DNA from: Escherichia coli
GTDB lineage: Bacteria; Pseudomonadota; Gammaproteobacteria; Enterobacterales; Enterobacteriaceae
Direction: 5' to 3' (one strand)
NCBI RefSeq assembly: GCF_030013205.1
Contig: NZ_CP122648.1
DNA length: 64,000 bases
Position numbers and translations under genes: made by a program. Shown here one piece after another: positions 6,268 through 60,492 of this stretch. The notes beneath the pieces are model-generated. The model was given only the letters and a program-made list of their open reading frames with translations, was not told where the DNA came from and searched no databases. Numbering within the stretch: position 1 is the first letter of the stretch; each line of letters begins with the position of its first letter.

Positions 6268-6359
6268 TTTATTAACGCGATTGTAAAACTGCGGTTTTTA
6301 CTCGTTTACAACGCGTGCGCTGGACATTACCATCCTCCTCTGCGATTTATCATCGCAAT

Positions 6360-6437
6360 CAAACGACTCGGGGTGCCCTTCTGCGTGAAGGCTGAGAAAT
6401 ACCCGTATCACCTGATCTGGATAATGCCAGCGTAGGG
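6360..6437 (+). repeat. Left copy of 78-bp direct repeat: TPP-riboswitch aptamer segment without downstream expression platform (att-like)
   Basis: Identical base-for-base to 15250-15327; sequence diverges immediately on both sides. Confidence 0.85.
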
Positions 6438-6520
6438 GGCCAAAATAGTCTTGAAAATTATGTGGTTGTATCTCTTTTTGACCATAAATCATGCTGTTAA
6501 GGTACAAAAAGGGGTCGTTT

Positions 6521-7828
6521 ATGAGGTCAAGAACTCTCCCATACACATTTCAGCGAAACGGTAATTACTATCTACAAATCCGGCTTTCGGATGGTCGGAT
6601 ATACAAAAAATCACTTTTTACTGACAGTTATCGCGAAGCATCGGCGTTGATGATTGGCCTTACTCCGCACATTCCTTTCGTTAAATCACTCGCTACTCCG
6701 TTGCCGCAATTTAATAAGTTTGTTTCAAACTTGATCGCTTCGTCACGTAACGTAATGATTCCGTTGCCACTCCCTCAGCAATTGAACAATATTTCTAAAG
6801 AAGTTTTGCAGCTTCAACCACCAGCCAAACCGGAAAAGGTGCTAACACTTGCTGATGCGTGGGCTATGTACAAGGAGGAAAGAGGTCGAAATTGGACAAA
6901 ATCGATCTCAATGGCAAATGAGCGTTATATGGAGGTATTGCTTGTTGTCTTGGGAAAAGAAACAGACGTAACGGCAATCACCAAACAAGATATTAAGCGA
7001 GTAATGGAAACTGTCGAAAACTTACCAAAGCGTGTAGTGCAACCGTATAGGTCAATGACTATTCAGCAACTAATCGAATGTGATGATGTGCTGCCAGAGG
7101 ATTTAGTTGGTGCTGAGGCTGTACATAAGCACCTTAAAATCTACAAATCGTTATTCAAAACATTTCTGACTGAAAACAAAGATATTCTATCTAAGTCTCC
7201 GACTGATGGAATAGTAGCGGCACCATCCAAAGCTAGGTTTGGTGCATACAGTGCAGCAGAAATGAAAAAATTTGTAGGATGGGCACTAAAGCAGCCTGAT
7301 GGATGGCAGAAGTGGATCACTTTGTTGTTGGCGTACACAGGAGCCAGAAGAGGTGAGATTGCTAAACTGGAGAAGTCGCAGATCAAATTTGATGAAGATA
7401 GCCAGCGGCACTATCTTCTGATCGCGGAAAGAAGGCTGGGTAAAACTGAGAATGCTACAAGACAGGTAGTGATTCATCCCAAACTGATTGAGTGGGGGTT
7501 TCTGGATTTTGTTAACCGCCAATGGAAAGAGAAAATCTTTTCGGAAGTCTCAGGTCGAAATATGTCAAAGATAGGTAAAGTTCTTTCAGATGTTCGTGAT
7601 CAGCTTGATATTCCTTATCTTGATGATTATGGGCAGCGGCGCTTGGTGCATAGTTTCCGGCATACTATGATTTCTACTTGTTTAGCTGGTTGGGTGAGTA
7701 ATTTGGCGCATCTGCAACAGGTGGTAGGTCATGAGAAAAGCGGTTTAGGGATTACCAGACGCTATTTGCACTCTTTTCCTTTACGTTCAATTTGTTACGT
7801 GATTGATGGTTTGGACTGGTTAAATTGA
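6521..7828 (+). CDS. Tyrosine site-specific integrase (phage/P4-like integrase family)
   Basis: C-terminal catalytic motifs TGARRGE, HSFRHT (HxxR) and RRYLH (Tyr nucleophile); ATG 6521 with AGGGG RBS preferred over 6491. Confidence 0.85.
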   Translation: MRSRTLPYTFQRNGNYYLQIRLSDGRIYKKSLFTDSYREASALMIGLTPHIPFVKSLATPLPQFNKFVSNLIASSRNVMIPLPLPQQLNNISKEVLQLQPPAKPEKVLTLADAWAMYKEERGRNWTKSISMANERYMEVLLVVLGKETDVTAITKQDIKRVMETVENLPKRVVQPYRSMTIQQLIECDDVLPEDLVGAEAVHKHLKIYKSLFKTFLTENKDILSKSPTDGIVAAPSKARFGAYSAAEMKKFVGWALKQPDGWQKWITLLLAYTGARRGEIAKLEKSQIKFDEDSQRHYLLIAERRLGKTENATRQVVIHPKLIEWGFLDFVNRQWKEKIFSEVSGRNMSKIGKVLSDVRDQLDIPYLDDYGQRRLVHSFRHTMISTCLAGWVSNLAHLQQVVGHEKSGLGITRRYLHSFPLRSICYVIDGLDWLN

Positions 7829-7869
7829 TGTGAGCCTCGTGAGAAAGGGAATAAATAGAGAAAATCAAG

Positions 7870-7897
7870 TTGTTACCTCATTGGCAGGGGATATAAT
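7870..7897 (+). promoter_or_regulatory. Candidate sigma70 promoter for nuclease gene
   Basis: TTGTTA-16 bp-TATAAT, ~30 bp upstream of ATG 7928; followed by near-palindrome TGACCATATTGTCA (possible operator). Confidence 0.45.
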
Positions 7898-7927
7898 GAC
7901 CATATTGTCATCTTGAGGAACAAAAGT

Positions 7928-9499
7928 ATGGTTGCTCGTTCTAACCTTGTAAATTTAGATGCACTGATTAAGCGTGCTGATTTAGGTTTAAAGATCCAAG
8001 ATAACTCTTCATTTGAAACGCTAAACAGTATTCCTGCAAGAGAATTGAAATCAGGAAGTGGAATTGCTGCGCTTCTGAGAAAACCAGATTTCCAGCGTGA
8101 AACAAATCATTGGGGGCCTGAGCAGGTTGTATCGCTTCTCGAATGCTACATCAATGGTGATTTGATACCTTCCGTTATTCTTTGGCGGTCTTCAACCCAT
8201 CTTTTTGTGATCGATGGTGGTCATCGTTTAAGTGCGTTACGTGCTTGGGTTGAAGATGATTATGGCGACGGTCATATATCCCATCAACTTTTTGGGCATG
8301 ATATTCCTCGTGAACAACGCCGCGCTGCAGATAGAACGAGAAAGCTTGTGAAGGAGAGGGTCGGTAGCTGGGAATATTATCAGAAGTTGCTTGCCGATGA
8401 TGCTTCATTGACCGAGGAACAGCAGAGAAGAATCAGCGTATTAACATCTCGTGGAATCTCAGTCCAATGGGTAGTGGGTGATGTAGATAAGGCAGAAACT
8501 TCATTTTTTAACATCAATATGAAGGGAACTCCTCTTGATGCTATCGAAGAGATGCTTCTAAAAAATCGCAAGAAAAGTATTCCGATAGCAACCCGAGCAA
8601 TTATTCGTGCCGGTAGAGGTCATCGCTATTGGTCGGGGTTTGATCAGAGCATTGCCCAGCAACTTGAAGATAAATCTGCAAAGCTGCATCGTTTGCTGTT
8701 CGAACCTGAAGTTGATCGCCCTATTAAAACTCTTGATCTTCCATTAGGCGGTTCTAGGGGGGTCAGGACAGCGATCCAAGTTTTGAAAGATTTCTTACTG
8801 ATCACTGATTGCAACCAGAATGGTGTTTTGAAAAAAATCGAAGCCTACCCTGATGATGCGTCGGGTGCTGATACGTTAAGAATCCTTTCCAAAGCCACAT
8901 CATTAAGCAATAGAATTACAGGCAATGGCGATGGTAGCTTGGGGCTTCATCCAGCGATTTATTTTTATGGTCCGACTGGAATCCACTCAACGCCAATGTT
9001 TCTAGGAACTGTGCTACTGGTGGCAAAACAACTCTCTAACAATAATGGTCAATTCTTTAAAGACTTCACAACAATCAGATCTAGGCTTGAGAGAATAATG
9101 ATCGAATTTAAGGACTTGATCGCAATGATAGTACAAAAACCAGGTAGTAATGTCCGAGTGGCTCGCTACTGTGATTTTTTAAATGCGGTGATCAAATCAC
9201 TCAAGCAGGGAGAGAATATTGATGAGAGTAAGCTTATCGAGCTGGCCGAATTGGAGGGGAGAATACTCTCTGGAGATTTTAAGAGAACATCAGCAAAAAT
9301 CAGCGATGAACAAAAAAGTAAGGTGTTCATTGACGTGGCTCTGCGCAACGCTTTGAAATGTCCGATTTGCCAAGGTTACCTTGATACTGAAAAGTCAGTT
9401 TCTTATGATCATATCGTACGTGTCCGTGAGGGAGGAGATGGTAATTCTGACAATGTACAGTTGACACACCCTTACTGTAACCAGTCAGTGAAGTGTTAA
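7928..9499 (+). CDS. ParB-like (DUF262/DGQHR-type) N-terminal domain fused to C-terminal HNH endonuclease; candidate defence/type IV restriction-like nuclease
   Basis: N-terminal motifs PDFQRETNHW and VIDGGHRLSAL; C-terminal CPICQ…YDHIVRV…NSDNVQLTHPYCN (HNH with Cys ligands); GAGGAA RBS before ATG 7928. Confidence 0.6.
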   Translation: MVARSNLVNLDALIKRADLGLKIQDNSSFETLNSIPARELKSGSGIAALLRKPDFQRETNHWGPEQVVSLLECYINGDLIPSVILWRSSTHLFVIDGGHRLSALRAWVEDDYGDGHISHQLFGHDIPREQRRAADRTRKLVKERVGSWEYYQKLLADDASLTEEQQRRISVLTSRGISVQWVVGDVDKAETSFFNINMKGTPLDAIEEMLLKNRKKSIPIATRAIIRAGRGHRYWSGFDQSIAQQLEDKSAKLHRLLFEPEVDRPIKTLDLPLGGSRGVRTAIQVLKDFLLITDCNQNGVLKKIEAYPDDASGADTLRILSKATSLSNRITGNGDGSLGLHPAIYFYGPTGIHSTPMFLGTVLLVAKQLSNNNGQFFKDFTTIRSRLERIMIEFKDLIAMIVQKPGSNVRVARYCDFLNAVIKSLKQGENIDESKLIELAELEGRILSGDFKRTSAKISDEQKSKVFIDVALRNALKCPICQGYLDTEKSVSYDHIVRVREGGDGNSDNVQLTHPYCNQSVKC

Positions 9500-9887
9500 A
9501 ATCACGTTTCACTTTTCGTTGTCATTTGTATCGAACGTTTTTGAGAAAGGGCAGGATTGCGAGCGAGTTACCAGCGTAAACAGATAAATACTGTTTTCGT
9601 AAGCCCACTGTCGCCGCTTTCCGCTCTGCAATTTTTGCTTGTCGGGGGGCTAATTGTGGCTTTGCTTGCCATAACATTAAAAGTCAGTAATATACTGAAA
9701 ATTAATACAATACTTTTCATATATCCCATTGAATATTCAGTTCATTGCCAAATAGCAAGCGGAGCACTCTCTCTTTAACGTTGTAGTAACTTAGTTGAAC
9801 AATTTTATAATATAATTTGTCTAAGTTGGTTGATGTATCAAAGCCTTTTTCTGAAGAATGAATTGGCGTGATTACTCACGCCAGATT

Positions 9888-10235
9888 TTAAATTTCAGAA
9901 CATAGGCTAAGCGTATAGACAGCAGTTTGCCCATCATTGTTAGTCGGTCTCATAACGAAAACAGGCTGACTCCCATTATCAATGTATGTGACTGCAACCC
10001 CTCCATCAGGTGTGGCATACATTTTTGCGATGCTTTTTTGACCTATAAAATCAAGTCTCCAAGTCTTACCACCAAGATGTATTGTCATTTTTTTATCTTG
10101 TATATCAAAAGTTGAATCTACAGAAACTTTCTGACTTCCCGAGTCAATATGACCTTCCTGTATTGCTTTACAGGAAAAGGTTGTGGCGTGGCCCATCACT
10201 GGAATTAACAAAGCGGCAAATACTAGTTTTTTCAT
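9888..10235 (-). CDS. Small secreted/periplasmic hypothetical protein (115 aa)
   Basis: Internal ATG with GGGAG RBS; signal peptide MKKLVFAALLIPVMGHA; no family recognised. Confidence 0.5.
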   Translation of the reverse strand: MKKLVFAALLIPVMGHATTFSCKAIQEGHIDSGSQKVSVDSTFDIQDKKMTIHLGGKTWRLDFIGQKSIAKMYATPDGGVAVTYIDNGSQPVFVMRPTNNDGQTAVYTLSLCSEI

Positions 10236-10345
10236 TTGTCTCCCTTGATGTGTCAAATGGATGGTGATGCTAATAATACATGATTGATTCAAAATGTCAC
10301 GATTAGTGCGTGGTTAATTGGTGCGTCAAATTGCATCTTTGTGCC

Positions 10346-10810
10346 ATGCGAAAGAATCTGAGATACCTTTTTGGACAACGAGTAAAAGAGTTCCGTATAG
10401 CTATTGGCTTAAGCCAAGAGGCCTTTGCAGATCGGTGTGGTTTTGCTCGTAGTTATATGAGTCGAATTGAGCGTGGTTGCTCTAATGCATCTCTTGATGC
10501 AATTGAGGTTCTGGCTGACGCTTTGCGTATTGAGCCTTGGCAGTTACTAGCTTCTGATTCAAGGAAAACTGATGATCAGGAGGTACTTGTTCCTTATGCT
10601 GCAGATGGGTCGTGTTTTCATCCAGGATTGGCAAGTACTCGCGATGGTTCGTTTAGAGTAGGGGAAAAATCAGCCCAGAAACGTTTCAGTTCGTTCAATG
10701 ACGCTCTCGAATACCTTCGTGGAATGGAAACCGCGAAGTGGCGTAGGCCTAATGCTAGTGGTAATTGGGGAATTGTATCTGCGGTTAAATGGGATCGACT
10801 GAATCAATAA
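10346..10810 (+). CDS. XRE-family (Cro/CI-type) HTH transcriptional regulator with uncharacterised C-terminal domain
   Basis: HTH segment LSQEAFADRCGFARSYMSRIERG; start codon uncertain (GTG 10310 or ATG 10346). Confidence 0.55.
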   Translation: MRKNLRYLFGQRVKEFRIAIGLSQEAFADRCGFARSYMSRIERGCSNASLDAIEVLADALRIEPWQLLASDSRKTDDQEVLVPYAADGSCFHPGLASTRDGSFRVGEKSAQKRFSSFNDALEYLRGMETAKWRRPNASGNWGIVSAVKWDRLNQ

Positions 10811-10976
10811 GATATCAGTAATTTTCGGGCCACTCCACAAGGCAATAAGTGGCTTAGTGGTGATTATCGAAGGGGAATACAAGCGAGCACCTAGGCACCA
10901 TTGCAAGAACCGCTCAACGCTGAGATCAGCAAGCCCCGATTTCTGCCGACCGTCCCTGTCAAATATCAAGGAGGCA

Positions 10977-11516
10977 TTACGCCTCCTCTTCTTCCTTCTT
11001 AATTCGCTGTACCGTCGAAGGAGCAACATTAAAGATCTCGGCGGTTTTACGCACTGACACGCCATCAGAAAGGGCTTTCTTTATACCTTCTCGATCCACT
11101 GCCTTACCTTTACCACGCTTTCTAGGATTGACGGCTTGCGCTTCTCGTTTACGTTCTAACATCAGTTCACGTTCACACGTTGCCACTGCCGACAACATAG
11201 TAAGCATCATTTTTCCCATCGCGCTTGTAATGTCTGCAATGATCCCTTCTTTGTGAAAGCGAACAATTACACCACGATTATTAAGTTGTTCCACTAAGGC
11301 AAGAATGTCTAAGGTGTTACGCCCTAAACGATCAAGAGAGTGGACGTGTAAGGTGTCGCCTTCTCTCAGATAGGCTAAACACGCTTGTAAGCCTGGGCGG
11401 TTAGTGTCTTTACCAGACAGCTTATCTTCAAAGACTTTGTCGAGAGTTAGTCCTGCAAGCTGGCGATCAGTATTTTGATCTACAGTGCTCACACGCTTAT
11501 AGCCGATATTGCTCAT
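10977..11516 (-). CDS. Serine recombinase (resolvase/DNA invertase family)
   Basis: N-terminus MSNIGYKRVSTVDQNTDRQ (catalytic Ser motif), C-terminal HTH; ATG 11516 with AAGGGGA RBS. Confidence 0.8.
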   Translation of the reverse strand: MSNIGYKRVSTVDQNTDRQLAGLTLDKVFEDKLSGKDTNRPGLQACLAYLREGDTLHVHSLDRLGRNTLDILALVEQLNNRGVIVRFHKEGIIADITSAMGKMMLTMLSAVATCERELMLERKREAQAVNPRKRGKGKAVDREGIKKALSDGVSVRKTAEIFNVAPSTVQRIKKEEEEA

Positions 11517-11564
11517 AAAATCCCCTTGATGTATCGATTTGGCACCACTCCAATGCAAATGAGT

Positions 11565-11660
11565 GTGTTGTATTCATTTGGTCTGTTTCAAGCCTTATGG
11601 ATACGGAATATTACACGATTTAGCTGTATTCATTTGGTATGCCTAATGGATACGCAGGGG
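11565..11660. promoter_or_regulatory. res-like recombinase binding sites upstream of the serine recombinase gene
   Basis: Two similar subsites TGTATTCATTTGGT…ATGGATACG with internal imperfect dyad symmetry, directly upstream of recombinase start. Confidence 0.4.
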
Positions 11661-11769
11661 GATAGATTAAATGGTGTTCTGTTTATACAGGTTTATTTGT
11701 TAGATCAACAAGTTGGCATTTCTAAACAGATGTTTGAACGTTGCCAAATGCCTTGACAACACAAGAAAA

Positions 11770-12720
11770 TGGCTTGCTATGAACGCATTACACGAAATAA
11801 GGCTATAAAAACAAAATAAATTTTAAAATTTGCACAAAAACGAGAAAACTCGTTCGACAAATAATAGATTGGTTTTTAATCGACAATTTCTGACAATTTC
11901 TGATGGTGCTCTGTAAACCGCATTACACAAGGCTTTGCGAAAGTGATGTAAAAGTGAAGAAAGTTAACATTGCACTTTGAAGCCATTTTTCATTGGATTT
12001 TTTAGTAGGGAATTACACAGGGAATAGAGAGCATTATTCTATGATTTACACAGGGAATATAGGGGATTATGGCACACACATAGAAAGGCATTACACAGAG
12101 TGAGTGCTATGTGATGATTGGTAGTAACGGTAGGTCACTGTGAGCTACCCCCCACAGAATTCTGTTACCCCTATCAAGTCTAACAGGGGTTTATAAAGAA
12201 TAATAAACCGATGATACCCCTATCAATATTGATACCCCTATTAGCTTTGATATGACTACCCCTATCAAAACTGATACCCGATAAGAATAAGTTAATAAGA
12301 ATAATTAAATAATATTCTTTATATCTATATATATGATCTTTTTGCCTTCCGGCGTTAGCTTCACTCTCTGGCAAGCAGCCTTACTCCGCTATCTTTGGGC
12401 TTCGTGGCTGGCCCGTTCCGCTCACACCGAAAGCAAAGCGTTACTCTTCTTCGTGTAACTATCGTTGGCGGTAACGCCACACGAAGAAATACTATTGCGC
12501 TGTGCGCAGTAAGAGTAATCACCTAACCAATCACCTGATTGCTTACGTGTTAACTCTCTCTAACTCTTAATTACCCTCCTACATTTAATAACTCTATTAT
12601 TCTCTGTAGTTGTGTAATTACTCGAAGAGAGAGCGGCTAAAGCTCAATTACACTCTGCTTTCCTCGTGTAATTTCACTAAGCCTCAATACAATTTCACTT
12701 CCTACATTCTGTAGTCGTGT
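11770..12720. repeat. Iteron-like repeat cluster in 1.9 kb ORF-free AT-rich region (putative origin or regulatory hub)
   Basis: Five direct copies of (C)ATTACACAG at ~11777-12100, four copies of TACCCCTATCAA at ~12163-12270, reverse-orientation GTGTAAT copies at ~12451-12715. Confidence 0.5.
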
Positions 12721-13503
12721 AATAGTTTTCGGTGGGGAAAAGCCAGAGGCGACACCGAAAGAAAATTCTGATCTTATTAATCTTATCTATCTTAGTTAAT
12801 CTTCTTACTTACTTTATCTACTTTATTATTAATAATAGCTTTATAAGCTCTCTGTGTAGCTCTCTGACGCAAGAAACAGCATTCAGGAAGGGAATCACCT
12901 TAGAAAAGTGTTCTTTGCGTCATAATGTGTTTTATGAAGGATTCAGAGGTGTTTCATAACACAAGGTATAGAGGATATTTTAGTTAATTAAAAATAAGGG
13001 GGCTAAATGCTTCTCTAACAGCATTAAGCAGGGTAGAGAATGGAAATGCATTGCCTACGTATATATAAACTCACTACAAGGCTTTACAGAGCGTTTTATA
13101 AAGTAACTAATCTAAGAACTCTCTGTTTTATATCTATCATCATCTTTCCATCATCTAACAAATACAAAATAAGCCCCTTAAATAAGCCTCTGGCGAGCTA
13201 AACAGCCATTACATAAGGGAATGTATTTCTTTTATCAAAACTTCGTTAGAACGCGTTTTAGAGCGTTTTATACAATAAGGAAGAATAGGACCGTCCGCAA
13301 GAGCACGAATTGCTAAGAAAGAATGTAAACGCATGAAAAATATCAGATTTTTTATGAAAATATATTGACAAATGTTTCTTTATATGTAATAATAGGTATT
13401 AGAGAGACAGAAAAACATTCTTCTCTAAATAATCAAAATCAATGCACTTTGAAGCCGTCAGGCTTGCAAGGTGTTTTTCTTTTAACTGAATAAGGAGTTT
13501 TTT

Positions 13504-13692
13504 ATGAAATGGTTTACACCGGAACACGTCGTAGAGGCATTTAAAAAAGGTGAGCTAACACGACATCAAGTAGTAATGAATCGTAATATGGCAAGGAGTC
13601 GAGGTTATCCAGAGCGTGAAAAATGTTTCGATGCAGCACTAAAAATTATTGATAAATTAAGAAAAAATGAAAAAGGATCTGAAACAGAGTAA
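13504..13692 (+). CDS. Hypothetical small protein (62 aa)
   Basis: AAGGAG RBS upstream of ATG; no family recognised. Confidence 0.35.
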   Translation: MKWFTPEHVVEAFKKGELTRHQVVMNRNMARSRGYPEREKCFDAALKIIDKLRKNEKGSETE

Positions 13693-13711
13693 AGAAGAGA
13701 AGGAGAAAACT

Positions 13712-13882
13712 ATGAGCGAAACTACAGAAAAGAAAAGACAACCACGCACTTGCTTTCATATTCCTGATGAAGTATTTCAGGTGTTGTTTAAAGAAGCCAG
13801 AAGTAAACGTATCACTGTTACAGATTACATTCTTGATATGTTGAAAAGAGAGGCTGAAACACTCTCAAATAAAAGCAAGTGA
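13712..13882 (+). CDS. Small ribbon-helix-helix (CopG/Arc-like) DNA-binding protein
   Basis: 56 aa; AAGGAGAAAAC RBS; N-terminal RTCFHIPDEVFQVLFKEA…ITVTDYILDML pattern typical of RHH. Confidence 0.45.
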   Translation: MSETTEKKRQPRTCFHIPDEVFQVLFKEARSKRITVTDYILDMLKREAETLSNKSK

Positions 13883-13936
13883 TTTTTATCACCATAGTAG
13901 CGCCGTAGAGCGTGATTACATCAAGGAGCTTTTTTA

Positions 13937-14599
13937 ATGATTAAACATACAAAACCTTTCTTAGGAATAGATTATGACTTACTAGCAATCACTTCCCTAG
14001 TGATTAACGGCAAAACAAAAGAAGTAAAACTACATCATAAGATCATTTATTCTTATTTGTTAAGTTTATCTGGCACATATCAAAAGGTAACACCATCTTT
14101 GAAAGGTATTGGTGAGCGGTTAGGAGTAGGTACAGATCAGACGGTACGCCGTCATATCAAAGATCTTGTTTCTTTTGGATGGTTGAAGATTGAGGAAAGG
14201 GCAGGTAGCACAAATGCTTATATTGTCCTTCCTTATGAACAAGAAGCCCAGACACAACAAGAAGCTACCGTTAAAGCTGTTCAGGAACAGCTTCCCCCTA
14301 CGGAAGATAATAAAGAGTTTTCTTTTGATGTTCTTGATGATTGGGATGCGCCTTTACCTTGGGAAATGGAAGAAACGCCATCTGATGAAAAGGTAGCTAA
14401 TGATAATGAGGAGGATGTGTTAGAGAATTTTGCCTCTCTTATCATCCAGGAGAAACACACAAGAACAGGAGGGGCATCATTTATAGAATTTGCAACATCG
14501 TTAGCCTGTAAGCACAGGATAAAGCTACCAAATGGTATTGAGGCATATTTTGCTAAGAAACATCCCAAAGTATATGAAGACTTTGATATTCCATTTTAA
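13937..14599 (+). CDS. HTH (winged-helix-like) protein with acidic linker; possible iteron-binding replication or regulatory protein
   Basis: 220 aa; AAGGAG RBS; HTH-like segment LKGIGERLGVGTDQTVRRHIKDLVSFGWL; sits beside iteron region. Confidence 0.45.
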   Translation: MIKHTKPFLGIDYDLLAITSLVINGKTKEVKLHHKIIYSYLLSLSGTYQKVTPSLKGIGERLGVGTDQTVRRHIKDLVSFGWLKIEERAGSTNAYIVLPYEQEAQTQQEATVKAVQEQLPPTEDNKEFSFDVLDDWDAPLPWEMEETPSDEKVANDNEEDVLENFASLIIQEKHTRTGGASFIEFATSLACKHRIKLPNGIEAYFAKKHPKVYEDFDIPF

Positions 14600-14794
14600 T
14601 AAGGAGGGTTATGATTCAATATTTAGTAAAAAATAAAGTAGAATTCATCTATTCCACTCTCTAAAAATCTATCTGTGTAATATAAAATGAAAACATTATG
14701 GTATTAGCTATGTATTGGTTATTGTTCTTTCTGGCCTTAGAAACATATGCAAGTAAGTCTGGAAAACGAAAGTAATATATTGATGATTTGTTTG

Positions 14795-15052
14795 TTATAA
14801 CTTCGTGGTGTCAAGTCCAGCAGTTTTGAGTCGCTCGGTAAGATTTCTCATTTTGCTGAACTCTGTACCAAAGCTGGCTTTAAGTCCTACACCTTCGCAA
14901 AACTCTTTTGCCGTGACGTTTTTCAGATGGTCAACATATTTGGTCATCTGGAGGTGCATTTCCATCGTTTGGCTATTTCGTGATGCGCTGCTAATGGCTT
15001 GCTTAATGTTCTCGTAGATCTGGGTTCTGTCATTGTTTATCCCACCTATCAA
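14795..15052 (-). CDS. Hypothetical protein (weak call; no in-frame ATG at ORF start)
   Basis: 85-aa ORF begins at TTG; first in-frame ATG would give 56 aa; no family recognised. Confidence 0.25.
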   Translation of the reverse strand: MIGGINNDRTQIYENIKQAISSASRNSQTMEMHLQMTKYVDHLKNVTAKEFCEGVGLKASFGTEFSKMRNLTERLKTAGLDTTKL

Positions 15053-15249
15053 ATTTAGAAAAATAATATTAATTAGCTAATTAATATAATCAATGGTTTT
15101 CACCATCTGAATGATAGCCGTTAATTGTTTCTTTTTCATTCCTTCTATGGGGTACAAAATGGGGTACACAGAGAAGAAGCAATTAATGGAGGCGAGCTTG
15201 CATCTGCAAGCCACTTCCCCTAAGCTGGCACAAAATATAGAGATTCAAC

Positions 15250-15327
15250 CAAACGACTCGGGGTGCCCTTCTGCGTGAAGGCTGAGAAATACCCGTATCA
15301 CCTGATCTGGATAATGCCAGCGTAGGG
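15250..15327 (+). repeat. Right copy of 78-bp direct repeat (part of intact thiM riboswitch)
   Basis: Identical to 6360-6437. Confidence 0.85.
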
Positions 15328-15379: not shown

Positions 15380-16168
15380 ATGCAAGTCGACCTGCTGAGT
15401 TCCGCGCAATCTGCGCACGCGTTACACCTTTTTCACCAACATTCCCCTCTTGTGCATTGCATGACCAATGATGTGGTGCAAACTTTTACTGCCAATACCT
15501 TACTGGCGCTCGGTGCATCGCCAGCGATGGTTATCGAAACCGAAGAAGCCAGTCAGTTTGCGGCTATCGCCAGTGCGTTGCTGATTAACGTTGGCACACT
15601 GACGCAGCCACGCGCACAGGCGATGCGTGCCGCCGTTGAACAGGCAAAACGCTCTCAAACACCCTGGACGCTTGATCCAGTAGCGGTTGGTGCACTCGAC
15701 TATCGCCGCCGTTTTTGTCTGGAACTTCTGTCTCATAAGCCAACCGCCATACGTGGTAATGCTTCGGAAATCATGGCATTAGCTGGCATTGCTAATGGCG
15801 GACGGGGAGTGGATACCACTGACGCCGCAGCTAATGCGATACCCGCTGCACAAACACTGGCACGGGAAACTGGCGCAATCGTCGTGGTCACAGGCGAGGT
15901 GGATTATGTTACCGATGGCCATTGCACCGTTGGCATTCACGGTGGCGATCCGCTAATGACCAAAGTGGTAGGAACTGGCTGTGCATTATCGGCGGTTGTC
16001 GCTGCCTGTTGTGCGCTACCAGGCGATATGCTGGAAAATGTCGCATCTGCCTGTCACTGGATGAAACAAGCCGGAGAACGCGCAGTCGCCAGTAGCGAGG
16101 GGCCAGGCAGTTTTGTTCCACATTTCCTTGATGCGCTCTGGCAATTGACGCAGGAGGTGCAAGCGTGA
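15380..16168 (+). CDS. thiM: Hydroxyethylthiazole kinase
   Basis: 262 aa, recognised ThiM sequence; riboswitch upstream. Confidence 0.95.
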
Positions 16169-16965
16169 AACGAATTAACGCTCTGACGATTGCCGGTACT
16201 GATCCGAGTGGTGGTGCGGGGATTCAGGCCGATCTTAAAACCTTCTCGGCACTTGGCGCTTATGGTTGCTCAGTTATTACTGCACTGGTGGCGCAAAATA
16301 CCCGTGGTGTACAGTCGGTGTATCGCATTGAGCCTGATTTTGTCGCCGCCCAGCTCGATTCGGTGTTCAGCGATGTGCGAATCGACACCACTAAAATCGG
16401 TATGTTGGCGGAAACCGATATTGTTGAAGCGGTGGCAGAACGGTTGCAACGTTATCAGATCCAAAACGTGGTACTCGACACCGTTATGCTGGCAAAAAGC
16501 GGCGACCCGCTGCTTTCACCTTCGGCGGTTGCTACGCTGCGCAGTCGATTATTGCCACAGGTTTCATTAATAACGCCAAACTTGCCCGAAGCTGCTGCCT
16601 TGCTCGACGCGCCACACGCGCGCACCGAACAGGAAATGCTGGAACAAGGGCGATCGCTGTTGGCGATGGGCTGTGGCGCAGTGCTAATGAAAGGTGGTCA
16701 TCTGGATGATGAGCAAAGCCCTGACTGGCTGTTTACTCGTGAGGGGGAACAACGATTTACTGCACCGCGCATTATGACCCAAAACACCCACGGCACTGGT
16801 TGTACGCTCTCTGCGGCGTTGGCTGCACTACGCCCGCGCCATACAAACTGGGCTGACACCGTACAGGAGGCAAAAAGCTGGCTTTCATCGGCGTTAGCCC
16901 AGGCCGACACGCTGGAAGTTGGTCACGGTATTGGTCCGGTTCACCACTTCCACGCCTGGTGGTGA
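16165..16965 (+). CDS. thiD: Hydroxymethylpyrimidine/phosphomethylpyrimidine kinase
   Basis: 266 aa; GTG start overlapping thiM stop (translational coupling). Confidence 0.95.
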
Positions 16966-31174: not shown

Positions 31175-31261
31175 AAAAAATAAGCCCGTGTAAGGGAGAT
31201 TACACAGGCTAAGGAGGTGGTTCCTGGTACAGCTAGCATTTTATGGGTTATGTTTTTCAGC
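31175..31261 (-). ncRNA. cyaR: CyaR (RyeE) Hfq-dependent sRNA
   Basis: Minus-strand sequence GCUGAAAAACAUAACCCAUAAAAUGCUAGCUGUACCAGGAACCACCUCCUUAGCCUGUGUAAUCUCCCUUACACGGGCUUAUUUUUU matches CyaR including terminator hairpin. Confidence 0.85.
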
Positions 31262-31345
31262 GAAACGGATGATAACCTTAATAAATGCAGCTGTATGTGA
31301 TCGGTTTCTAAGAATTTTCCATCCGGGAAAAATAATCGAAATTAA

Positions 31346-42900: not shown

Positions 42901-43101
42901 GACATCCGGGCTCGCACCTGGGTAGAGCGTGACTACCTGAATGGTTGGATAGTCCACTTCCGGCAGCGCCGAAACGGGCAGGGCGCGATAACCGATAATC
43001 CCGGCGAGTAAGATCGCCACCATCAGCAGCGTGGTGGCGACAGGACGCATAATAAACAGGCGCGACGGGCCGCCTGTGCTGCTCGAGGGTAACACCTGCA
43101 T
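39979..43101 (-). CDS. mdtB: RND multidrug efflux pump subunit
   Basis: 1040 aa RND transporter. Confidence 0.95.
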
Positions 43102-44348
43102 CAGGAGCGTGCTCCTTTTTTCGCGTATTCGCGGCTGGTGGCTTTCTCTTCCGAAGTGGTGGCGCTTTGAGCTTCAACCACTTCCACTTTCGCCCCTTCG
43201 GTCAGGCGATCAATTCCGTCCGTCACTACGCGGTCGCCCGCAGAAATACCTGCGCGGATCACCACTTTCTGACTGTCCTGAATGCCTGGCGTCACCAGAT
43301 GTTTGCTGACCTTGTTTTCGCTATTCAGCACCCAGACAAAATGGCCTTCATTGCCCATTTGCAGGGCGGCTGTTGGGATCACTACGGCGTTTTGTTCGGT
43401 GTCGACTAACATGCGCGCGTTAACAAACTGATTGGGAAACAGCGCATCATCCTGATTATTAAAGCGTGCTTTCACTTTAATCGTACCGGTTGTGGCATCG
43501 ATTTGGTTATCGAGGCTTAACAGCGTGCCTTCACTTAATTTCTTCGAGTTGGTGCGATCCCAGGCTTCTACCACCAGCGGTTTTCCGGCTTTTTGCGCCT
43601 GCACTACGGTAGCGATATCGCTTTCCGGCAGGGTAAAGAGCAAATCGATAGGATGCGTCTGGGTGATCACCACGATCCCGGTGGTATCACCACTGGAGAT
43701 TTGGTTACCAACATCAACCTGCTTGAGACCAACGCGACCATCGACTGGTGCGGTAATACGGCTCCAGTCGAGTTGCAGCTGTGCGCTGGCGACGCTTGCT
43801 TCATCTGCCTTAATGGTGCCTTCGGTTTCACTGACCAGCGCTTGTTGGGCATCCAGTTCCTGACGAGATACGAGATTGGTTTTTGCCAGTTGCTGATAAC
43901 GCGCCAGGTCACGGCGGGCGTTGGCAAGCGTGGCTTTATCTTTTGCCAGTTGGCCCTGGGCTTGTGCTAATGCAACTTTGAACTGGCTGGGGTCAATTTC
44001 TGCCAGTAAATCGCCTGCTTTGACCTGCTGGCCTTCCTGGAAATGTAACGCCATCAGTTGACCGTCCACGCGGCTGCGCACCGTAACGGTATTAGCGGCG
44101 GTAATGGTGCCAAGCCCGGTGAGATAACGTGGCACAGCTTGTTCTACGGCAGTCGCCGCCTGAACCGGGGCTAATGGGCCGGAACGCATACCACGGCGAC
44201 CACCCGCTGGCGATTGCTGCGCTTGTTTCGTCGCCCCTGGGGCTGCACTCCGGGAGTCATTGCGGCCTTGCCAGAACCAGAATGCGGCGATGGCGGCGAT
44301 AACCACCACGATTACGATTACCCAACGGGATTTATAACTGCCTTTCAT
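43101..44348 (-). CDS. mdtA: RND efflux membrane fusion (periplasmic adaptor) protein
   Basis: 415 aa from ATG 44348 ([16 protein letters not shown]…); ORF-track 464 aa is an upstream extension. Confidence 0.9.
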
Positions 44349-44401
44349 CGTTAAGAGTTTCTCTTCCTGAAACGTTTCGCGGAATGATACTAGTGTAGCC
44401 A

Positions 44402-44419
44402 GCCAATAAGGGAGAAAAA
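44402..44419 (-). promoter_or_regulatory. BaeR-binding box in mdtA promoter
   Basis: Minus strand reads TTTTTCTCCCTTATTGGC, close to published BaeR consensus TTTTTCTCCATDATTGGC. Confidence 0.6.
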
Positions 44420-44577
44420 TGGAGGAATTATGAAACACTATCGGGAATCGTCTGAATGGCGGGCACATTTGCGAGCACGCATCCAGTAATAACACATGAA
44501 ACTATTTTATCTACGCGTTAGCGATAGACTACGTGCATGGCGAAAGGAGGTAAGCCGATGATTTCAGCGGGACGCTG

Positions 44578-44717
44578 AAACGGGAAAGCCCCTCCCGAGG
44601 AAGGGGCCATAAATAAGGAAAGGGTCATGATGAAGCTACTCATCATCGTGGTGCTCTTAGTCATTAGCTGGCCAGCTTACTAAGACTACCAGGGCGGGGG
44701 AAACCCCGCTCTACCCT
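44578..44717 (-). ncRNA. sibB: Sib antisense sRNA (antitoxin) over ibs unit 1; boundaries approximate
   Basis: Minus-strand TTGACA-17-TACTTT promoter downstream of ibs stop; hairpin plus U-rich tract upstream of ibs start. Confidence 0.5.
44627..44683 (+). CDS. ibsB: Type I toxin Ibs (18 aa, MMKLLIIVVLLVISWPAY)
   Basis: Exact small hydrophobic ORF with tandem ATG. Confidence 0.8.
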   Translation: MMKLLIIVVLLVISWPAY

Positions 44718-44905
44718 CACTCCTGAAAGTATGCCTTCACGATAAGATTGTCAATCTGCAGGCTTTGCAGTCTGCGATCCTGCCAGCAAATATTCTTTGC
44801 GAGACGTTACGCAATAATCACACTGGAAACTATTTTATCCGCAAGTCAGCGATAGACTGCATTCAGGGCGAAAGGAGGTAAGCCGACGATTTCAGCGGGA
44901 CGCTG

Positions 44906-45045
44906 AAACGGGAAAGCCCCTCCCGAGGAAGGGGCCTTAAATAAGGAAAGGGTCATGATGAAGATACTCATCATCGTGGTGCTCTTAGTGATTAGCTACC
45001 CAGCATACTAAGACTACCAGGGCGGGGGAAACCCCGCTCTACCCT
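44906..45045 (-). ncRNA. Sib antisense sRNA over ibs unit 2; boundaries approximate
   Basis: Minus-strand TTGACA-17-TAATTT promoter; same architecture as unit 1. Confidence 0.5.
44955..45011 (+). CDS. Type I toxin Ibs variant (18 aa, MMKILIIVVLLVISYPAY)
   Basis: Middle repeat unit; differs from flanking Ibs peptides at L4I and W15Y. Confidence 0.75.
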   Translation: MMKILIIVVLLVISYPAY

Positions 45046-45234
45046 CACTCCTGAAATTATGCCTTCACGATAAGATTGTCAATCTGCAGGCTTTGCAGTC
45101 TGCGATCCCGCCAGCAAATATTCTTTGCGAGTCGTTACGCAATAATCACAGAGGAAACTATTTTGTTCACGCGTTAGCGATAGACTGCATTCAGGGCGAA
45201 AGGAGGTAAGCCGACGATTTCAGCGGGACGCTGA

Positions 45235-45374
45235 AACGGGAAACCCTCTCCCGGAGAAGAGGGCTTTTAATAAGGAAAGGGTTATGATGAAGCACGTCAT
45301 CATACTGGTGATACTCTTAGTGATTAGCTTCCAGGCTTACTAAGAACACCAGGGGGAGGGGGAAACCTCTCCCT
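45235..45374 (-). ncRNA. sibA: Sib antisense sRNA over ibs unit 3; boundaries approximate
   Basis: Minus-strand TTGACA-17-TAATTT promoter downstream of ibs stop. Confidence 0.5.
45284..45343 (+). CDS. ibsA: Type I toxin Ibs (19 aa, MMKHVIILVILLVISFQAY)
   Basis: Exact small hydrophobic ORF. Confidence 0.8.
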   Translation: MMKHVIILVILLVISFQAY

Positions 45375-45563
45375 AACCCTCACTCCTGAAATTATGTCAC
45401 TCCGCCCTTAGTGTCAATCGACGGCTCTTCGTTCTTGCGAGGCGAATAGCAAAATTTTCTGCGCCGCCGGGCCTAATTCTGAAAGTTTCTTCGTTTGCTC
45501 TTATTTCATTATTGCAATCGGTATGATACCGGACCTCAATAATTCTCTAAGAAAGGATTTCTT

Positions 45564-46223
45564 ATGAGCGAACAAATCACGTTTGCCACCAGCGATTTTG
45601 CCAGTAACCCGGAACCACGTTGCCCCTGCATTTTGTTGCTGGATGTTTCTGGCTCGATGAGCGGAAGACCTATTAATGAACTTAATGCCGGATTGGTTAC
45701 CTTTCGCGATGAGCTGCTTGCCGACCCGCTGGCCTTAAAAAGAGTGGAACTCGGCATTGTGACGTTCGGCCCGGTGCATGTGGAACAACCCTTTACCAGC
45801 GCCGCTAATTTTTTCCCGCCCATCCTGTTTGCCCAAGGCGATACACCAATGGGCGCTGCCATTACCAAAGCCCTGGATATGGTAGAGGAGCGCAAACGTG
45901 AGTATCGTGCAAATGGTATTTCGTATTATCGCCCGTGGATTTTCCTGATCACCGATGGCGCTCCAACCGATGAGTGGCAGGCTGCCGCCAACAAAGTGTT
46001 TCAGGGGGAAGAAGATAAGAAGTTTGCCTTCTTTTCCATCGGTGTTCAGGGGGCGGATATGAATACTTTGGCACAAATCAGCGTTCGTCAGCCTTTGCCA
46101 CTGCAGGGATTACAATTCCGTGAACTGTTTAGCTGGTTATCCAGTTCGCTGCGTTCGGTTTCCCGCTCCACGCCGGGAACGGAAGTTGTGCTGGAAGCGC
46201 CAAAAGGCTGGACGTCAGTGTGA
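45564..46223 (+). CDS. yegL: von Willebrand factor A (vWA) domain protein
   Basis: 219 aa; MIDAS-like DVSGSMSG motif. Confidence 0.85.
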
Positions 46224-60012: not shown

Positions 60013-60480
60013 AGTAAGTACAAAACCTATTCGTTGTATGACAAATGTCACAATTCGATCATGGATAAATCGGGGCAAAAATGCAATGTTGCAGCACTAT
60101 TTATCTCATATTATTTGAGGTTTATAACCTCACATTATCCCTTAATTAAAAGTGGTAATAATAAAACATTATTTAAGAAATATCGCATGTGGAGACACTA
60201 TATTAAATATTGTCAATCTAAAGAAACTCCTAAAAACCATATTGAATGACACTTAATATAATTCTTAAAAATAGCCAATTGCCGAATTGTTACCTTGCCT
60301 GCTATTCCGTTAGCTGTAACACTTCCTCCTGCATTATTGGAGAGCCAATATTCAATTACCATAATGTCACCTTATATTCGGAAGTTAATTTTCGCAATAA
60401 CCCTTTCTCATCAACGACTGTATGTTGAGAGGGTTTTAAAAATTAAGCTAAATCAGTGTATTGGTAGCTAAAAAGCCAGG

Positions 60481-60492
60481 GGCGGTAGCGTG
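60481..60492 (+). promoter_or_regulatory. ops element (RfaH recruitment site, JUMPstart) in colanic-acid operon leader
   Basis: Exact GGCGGTAGCGTG ~180 bp upstream of wza. Confidence 0.7.

Follow-up and report, generated by a model that had tools for sequence, protein, structure and literature searches.

Three tandem Ibs/Sib type I toxin-antitoxin units between mdtA and yegL of Escherichia coli, an allele of an array that varies in copy number

Between mdtA and yegL, the 64-kb stretch of Escherichia coli DNA analysed here (the window) carries three head-to-tail Ibs/Sib type I toxin-antitoxin units. We hold with high confidence (a probability of about 0.9) that this locus is one common allele of a tandem Ibs/Sib array whose copy number is polymorphic. 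The module, its tandem duplication and its variation in copy number have been published (Fozo et al. 2010; Han et al. 2010), and the three-unit layout is already annotated by RefSeq in many genomes, including that of O157:H7 EDL933. As a known and annotated array of this kind the locus carries little weight as a discovery. What the comparison with other genomes adds is a view of how the units seem to have recombined and of where their natural alleles differ.

Results

Layout of the array

The array fills the gap between mdtA (43101..44348, minus strand, with its ATG at 44348) and yegL (45564..46223, plus strand). Tandem Repeats Finder reported a single tandem array at 44487-45396 (period 328, 2.8 copies, 89% matches, score 1429), and a repeat search gave in-register copy starts at 44468, 44796 and 45124, a spacing of 328. 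Both searches bear out an earlier reading of the window, made from the sequence only, which had placed three repeats of ~328 bp between these same two flanking genes. All three 328 bp units are intact. Unit 1 (44468..44795), proximal to mdtA, is of a type that we call B, whereas unit 3 (45124..45417), proximal to yegL, is of A-type and is the counterpart of the K-12 sibA/ibsA unit. Informative sites, compared with units 1 and 3, mark the middle unit 2 (44796..45123) as a hybrid: its 5' part, up to nt ~95-120, is A-type and all that follows is B-type.

The identity of the units was established from both strands. On the minus strand, Rfam returned three full-length matches to SIB_RNA (RF00113) at 44612-44754, 44940-45082 and 45269-45417, each covering the full model (1-147), with scores of 140.2, 142.2 and 149.5 bits against a gathering score of 56; beyond these three, no Sib match was found by Rfam within the 64-kb window. 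On the plus strand, the RefSeq annotation of the identical locus lists two Ibs-family toxins plus IbsA and so covers all three open reading frames, the RefSeq name of the identical proteins being 'type I toxin-antitoxin system Ibs family toxin'. The assignment to the Ibs/Sib type I family made in the sequence-only reading is therefore secure, and the three-unit observation is confirmed, far beyond chance.

Since short reads can lead to mis-assembly of tandem repeats of ~330 bp, the extra repeat might have been an artefact in which the repeat was mis-expanded, a possibility raised with the original observation. We give this next to no credence, because 1301 bases of the region are 100% identical to the finished genome NZ_CP062203.1 and three units in this layout recur in many independent complete assemblies, over record spans of 1300-1302 bp. 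The units are also individually resolvable in an assembly, because they are 9-28% different from one another over the unit.

Toxins, antisense RNAs and promoters

Direct reading gave plus-strand ibs open reading frames of 18-19 codons, each with the Shine-Dalgarno sequence AAGGAAAGGG placed 2 nt upstream of the ATG. The unit 1 frame (44627-44683) encodes MMKLLIIVVLLVISWPAY (RefSeq WP_100249772.1), the unit 2 frame (44955-45011) encodes MMKILIIVVLLVISYPAY (WP_012767742.1) and the unit 3 ibsA frame (45284-45343) encodes MMKHVIILVILLVISFQAY (WP_010723109.1). The outer units had been taken to encode IbsB and IbsA. This was exact for unit 3, which is identical to K-12 IbsA, but not for unit 1: K-12 IbsB is MMKLLIIVVLLVISFPAY (…ISFPAY) and the unit 1 peptide has tryptophan at residue 15 (…ISWPAY), a single F15W difference in 18 residues. 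The unit 2 peptide differs from IbsB at 2 of 18 residues (L4I and F15Y). Hence, both B-type units vary relative to K-12, and the middle unit is not the sole variant that it was thought to be. Nor is its peptide unusual, as it is the common RefSeq protein WP_012767742.1, present also in EDL933 and APEC O1. A full-text literature search for four peptide strings found no paper; the cataloguing of the peptide rests on the RefSeq accessions.

The ends of the Sib RNAs were placed by aligning the annotated MG1655 sibA and sibB genes to the window. This gave minus-strand RNAs of 136 nt for unit 1 (44583..44718, SibB-type, with ends taken from the MG1655 sibB annotation), 136 nt for unit 2 (44911..45046, SibB-type) and 144 nt for unit 3 (45238..45381, SibA). 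The unit 1 RNA matches K-12 SibB at 132 of 136 nt and is antisense to the whole of its ibs frame plus the Shine-Dalgarno sequence, and the unit 3 RNA matches K-12 SibA at 143 of 144 nt. All three ibs frames lie wholly inside their antisense Sib RNAs, as is the rule in the Ibs/Sib family.

Each Sib RNA has a minus-strand promoter in which TTGACA is separated by 17 nt from a -10 hexamer that reads TACTTT in unit 1 (44726..44754) and TAATTT in unit 2 (45054..45082) and in the sibA promoter of unit 3 (45389..45417). This is the TTGACA-17-TA(A/C)TTT pattern that had been read from the letters at the outset. Transcription would start at 44718, 45046 and 45381, respectively; in each unit the -10 hexamer lies 7 nt from the G that aligns with the annotated K-12 SibA and SibB 5' ends, and the unit 1 promoter is homologous to the sequence at the K-12 sibB 5' end. 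A generic promoter and terminator scan passed over these promoters, since their -10 hexamers agree with TATAAT at just three of six positions; they were found by direct reading and homology. At the 3' end of the Sib RNA a GC hairpin followed by UUUCC makes an intrinsic terminator, such that both the promoter, of constitutive type, and the terminator are conserved with K-12. The same predicted fold architecture and terminator hairpin are present in all three Sib RNAs.

Copy number among complete genomes

Of 5,426 complete E. coli genomes, 5,419 gave a match in a megablast search with window positions 44300-45600. For the census, the 5,422 matching records were ranked and sampled at 60 evenly spaced rows, with identity bands considered alongside. 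Twenty-four rows had a record span of 1300-1302 bp in a single piece with three Ibs genes annotated, another 24 spanned 966-979 bp and have two units (the K-12 type), seven fit four units (two of these verified directly) and one, with a span of 643 bp, has one unit. Representatives of the one-, two-, three- and four-unit classes were each confirmed from their sequence records. Among the 60 sampled rows we estimate that ~40% have three units, ~40% two, ~12% four and ~2% one; a sample of this size (n=60) carries an uncertainty of about ±12 percentage points, and laboratory and clinical lineages are over-represented among RefSeq complete genomes. The best match was at least 95% identical in 2,479 records, the range that held the sampled three-unit rows as well as three of the four-unit rows. 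Thus, the three-unit layout is ordinary, being common to ~40% to about half of sequenced E. coli, O157:H7 included.

The sequence-only reading had seen three units as a notable expansion beyond the normal state and had proposed comparison with other genomes, granting that three units in reference strains would make this the common state. The comparison came out in just that way, as EDL933, the reference strain of O157:H7, carries three units in its mdtA-yegL gap. What is uncommon is the exact allele combination of the window: the whole 1301 nt were matched at 99% identity or better in only 54 records. In contrast to the full combination, a unit at least 99% identical to the middle 136-nt Sib/ibs segment was found in 2,010 of 5,344 matching records, and the protein it encodes, WP_012767742.1, is encoded by the first unit in EDL933, by the first of two in APEC O1 and by the third in four-unit strains.

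These counts can be set beside the published gene numbers. MG1655 carries five Ibs copies (Wen & Fozo 2014), and an earlier survey counted six Ibs genes in EDL933 and seven in each of Sakai, Shigella boydii and E. fergusonii, noted that Ibs number varies from strain to strain and discussed how the locus has been duplicated in tandem (Fozo et al. 2010, PMC2887945). Three side observations were made during the census. A 136-nt B-type Sib/ibs query matched at one place in K-12 genomes and at three to five places in many others; as EDL933 has five such places and only two B-type units at mdtA-yegL, further B-type units lie elsewhere in some strains. The two-unit strains APEC O1 and AR_0104 (NZ_CP020116.1) have no IbsA-type toxin at mdtA-yegL. 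In NZ_CP141791.1 the IbsA allele of the third unit (WP_071528451.1) starts MRK… rather than MMK…, its second Met codon having been lost.

The closest known relatives are the K-12 sibB/ibsB and sibA/ibsA pairs (the SIB or QUAD1a,b repeats), which have the same locus, flanking genes and unit architecture as the window. K-12 has two units and the window three, and neither B-type peptide of the window equals K-12 IbsB. EDL933 resembles the window more fully in having three units, the same MMKILIIVVLLVISYPAY protein and the same IbsA, but the two differ in allele order and content. Writing A for the IbsA allele and giving the other alleles short numbers (772 for the …ISWPAY peptide, 742 for WP_012767742.1 and 741 for MMKWIIIVVLLVISFPAY), EDL933 is [742][741][A], whereas the window is [772][742][A]. 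Tandem duplicates in one intergenic region with strain-variable copy number are likewise known for ldr/rdl and for zorO-orzO/zorP-orzP (Fozo et al. 2010); however, those are unrelated toxin and RNA families, in which the antisense RNAs do not span the whole open reading frame (T1TAdb paper).

Recombination between units

The hybrid nature of unit 2 was assessed at sites where units 1 and 3 differ, with unit 2 scored for the neighbour that it matched. At these informative sites unit 2 tracks unit 3 over the first ~95-120 nt and unit 1 thereafter, the B-type remainder spanning the Sib terminator, the ibs frame, the Sib promoter and the inter-unit spacer. Such an A-5'/B-3' hybrid is what unequal crossing over between [B][A] arrays should produce. 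The A unit of one array would pair with a B unit in a second array, and exchange within the conserved core (…GGCGAAAGGAGGTAAGCCGAYGATTTCAGCGGGACGCTGAAACGGGAAA…) would join A-type 5' sequence to B-type 3' sequence. Given the A-type 5' part of unit 2, a putative promoter in ibsA-type upstream sequence may drive transcription of its ibs mRNA.

The middle unit of EDL933 has the same hybrid pattern as unit 2 of the window. The single unit of strain WCHEC035123 is the reciprocal B-5'/A-3' hybrid: of the initial 19 informative sites 18 are B-type, the one exception being the A-type site at the very start, and beyond alignment column ~126 the unit is A-type. The hybrid in the window and its reciprocal in the one-unit strain both argue for unequal recombination as the source of copy number, and on this point the sequence-only reading holds. 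In AR_0104, a B2-type strain with two units, the last, yegL-proximal unit has a core that is largely B-type between a 5' part and a 3' flank that are both A-type, a mosaic that suggests gene conversion. The array would have arisen by unequal homologous recombination together with gene conversion between units.

The same comparison bears on the state of K-12. Its B unit agrees with unit 2 of the three-unit strain 2011C-3911 at 28 of 28 informative sites after the switch, and upstream of the switch point it matches unit 1 of that strain. The K-12 two-unit array is most simply read as a three-unit array minus one repeat length. Its two units are probably a contracted state and not the baseline, the direction being drawn from the mosaic patterns.

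Two observations speak to the age of these events. The B-type parts of units 1 and 2 of the window have already diverged, with ~8-9 differences in ~235 nt, and the same alleles occur in different orders: in addition to the orders in the window and EDL933 given above, APEC O1 is [742][772] and four-unit strains are [901][741][742][A]. For these two reasons we judge the recombination events to be old and common to many strains, not private to the strain of the window.

The alternative, put forward in the sequence-only reading, is a recent expansion specific to this strain from a K-12-like two-unit state. It would account for the two units of K-12, for a middle unit with the structure of an unequal-crossover product and for the small number of records that share the exact allele combination. 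We nevertheless regard it as highly improbable, since three units and even four are so frequent in the sampled genomes, EDL933 among the three-unit ones, and since the divergence between the B-type parts of units 1 and 2 is unfit for a recent duplication. It also sits poorly with a middle-unit allele that is present in 2,010 records at array positions that vary between strains, and with a K-12 B unit that resembles the deletion product of a three-unit array. We retain the reading of the window as one common allele of a polymorphic array.

Outgroups were searched with an exact 24-mer scan of one genome per species, which returned 25 loci. A single A-type unit lies beside mdtA in most Citrobacter species and in S. 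enterica diarizonae, and two lie there in Pseudocitrobacter faecalis. In cryptic Escherichia the mdtA-yegL gap holds one B-type unit in E. whittamii and in MOD1-EC7003 and two in E1V33. The E. fergusonii and E. albertii loci were not recovered by the exact 24-mer scan, and the polarity picture is to that extent incomplete. Given units at mdtA in the outgroups, the locus is old. The distribution of types suggests that the B type is an Escherichia development, and copy number appears to have moved both ways.

Recognition loops

Published work on the K-12 paralogues provides the frame for comparing the units. Sib overlaps the entire ibs frame and its ribosome-binding site, and once the two RNAs pair, translation is blocked and RNase III-dependent decay follows (Wen & Fozo 2014). 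SibC carries a pair of target recognition domains: TRD1 (+46..+68, the P5 loop), with its target inside the open reading frame, and TRD2 (+99..+115), which targets the translation start with the assistance of the P6 loop. The two are independent and either suffices; to retarget SibC to ibsD it was enough to engineer contiguous helices of 22-25 bp; the TRDs fall in variable regions of the five K-12 Sib RNAs; and the ends of the ibs mRNAs are poorly defined (Han et al. 2010, PMC2943612). Toxicity upon overproduction and repression by the cognate Sib have been demonstrated only for K-12 paralogues. In a 2025 preprint, Salmonella IbsA was found to bind the a and b subunits of Fo and to lower ATP.

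By analogy with the K-12 paralogues, each unit of the window would produce an ibs mRNA encoding a hydrophobic membrane toxin of 18-19 residues and, from the opposite strand, a Sib RNA of ~136-144 nt that covers the full frame and the ribosome-binding site. Sib would pair first via its loops, TRD1 within the frame and TRD2, assisted by the P6 loop, at the translation start, and pairing would then spread such that translation is blocked and mRNA decay is triggered.

When aligned to SibC, the Sib RNAs of units 1 and 2 differ at six of 136 nt, and all six fall in the equivalents of TRD1, the P6 loop or TRD2: four are in TRD1, one is in the P6 loop region (codon 4) and one is at the distal edge of TRD2. 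The TRD1 differences fall within 44655-44677 in unit 1 and 44983-45005 in unit 2. Units 1 and 2 share 26 contiguous identical nt across the Shine-Dalgarno sequence and start codon, whereas SibA has at most 14-16 contiguous nt in common with either B-type unit. Given this pattern of differences and the 26 shared nt, we predict that units 1 and 2 probably cross-repress via TRD2 and are discriminated at the four positions of TRD1. The SibC/ibsC model (PMC2943612) was tested only on K-12 SibC and SibD pairs, and its extension to the window alleles is by inference.

A wider comparison of B-type units, aligned with MAFFT, drew 19 distinct 136-nt alleles from the window, from ten E. coli genomes and from three lineages of cryptic Escherichia, 14 sequences in all. 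Variation within the open reading frame is confined to codons 4-5 and 12-17, which occur in many combinations, and codons 6-11 are invariant. Codons 4-5 encode LL, IL, WI or LV; codons 12-17 have synonymous changes in V, I, P and A, and codon 15 encodes F, Y, W or L. No frameshift or nonsense change was found among the 19 alleles. This pattern of loop variation extends to natural B-type alleles the remark of Han et al. that the TRDs lie in variable regions.

The same alleles bear on whether one or both B-type units might be decaying, non-functional copies kept by linkage only. Relaxed selection has been raised as a possible reason for the persistence of duplications (Fozo et al. 2010, PMC2887945), but every unit of the window retains its ATG, Shine-Dalgarno sequence, stop codon, Sib promoter, terminator and full covariance-model score, and the reading frames of the 19 alleles are uninterrupted, with changes limited to the codons listed above. 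Decay of the B-type units is very unlikely on this evidence.

Elsewhere in the window

Several features outside the array were also recorded. An 82-nt direct repeat is present at 6356-6437 and 15246-15327 (99% identical, spacing 8890), and both copies lie inside matches to the TPP riboswitch (RF00059, 61.9 and 71.2 bits). The second copy is just upstream of two open reading frames (15380-16965) that we take to be thiM and thiD from their position and size only. The repeats bracket a segment of ~8.9 kb (about 6440-15245) that encodes a 445-residue protein with a weak tyrosine-recombinase match (6491-7828), a helix-turn-helix RstR-like repressor (10310-10810) and, on the minus strand, a serine recombinase/invertase-like protein (10977-11558); two open reading frames of the segment gave no family match. 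The segment resembles an integrative element whose attachment site was the riboswitch, the presumed thiM leader, which became duplicated. The window also has a CyaR/RyeE small RNA (31178-31263, minus strand, 100.7 bits) and a JUMPstart element (60454-60492, plus strand, 57.3 bits).

Discussion

The three units between mdtA and yegL are best regarded as a frequent state of a known array, and the patterns of hybrid units point to exchange between its members. Beyond this, a more ambitious proposal can be made in which the array is a recombination-driven cassette system where unequal crossover and gene conversion reshuffle, between units and between strains, a limited set of recognition-loop variants, namely those at codons 4-5 (the Sib P6 loop), those at codons 12-17 (TRD1) and the one TRD2-edge base, with selection at the RNA level keeping co-resident pairs partly orthogonal. 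The confinement of open reading frame variation to the loops, much of it synonymous, fits such a system, as do the many combinations and array orders in which the loop variants are found. However, relaxed constraint on loops together with constrained stems accounts for the same pattern. The loop variation could reflect either selection for orthogonality or loops that are free to vary between constrained stems, and we consider the cassette system rather unlikely. If it were true, loop diversity would be adaptive and not neutral.

The reading of the locus as one common allele of a polymorphic array has consequences that do not depend on the cassette system. K-12 is not typical at mdtA-yegL, where two units are one of several common alleles. 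The hybrids show where units recombine, and differences among the natural alleles are almost confined to the recognition loops that experiments have defined. Together, hybrids and alleles make up a ready-made panel for tests of cross-talk between Sib RNAs, which could be of use for work on antisense specificity.
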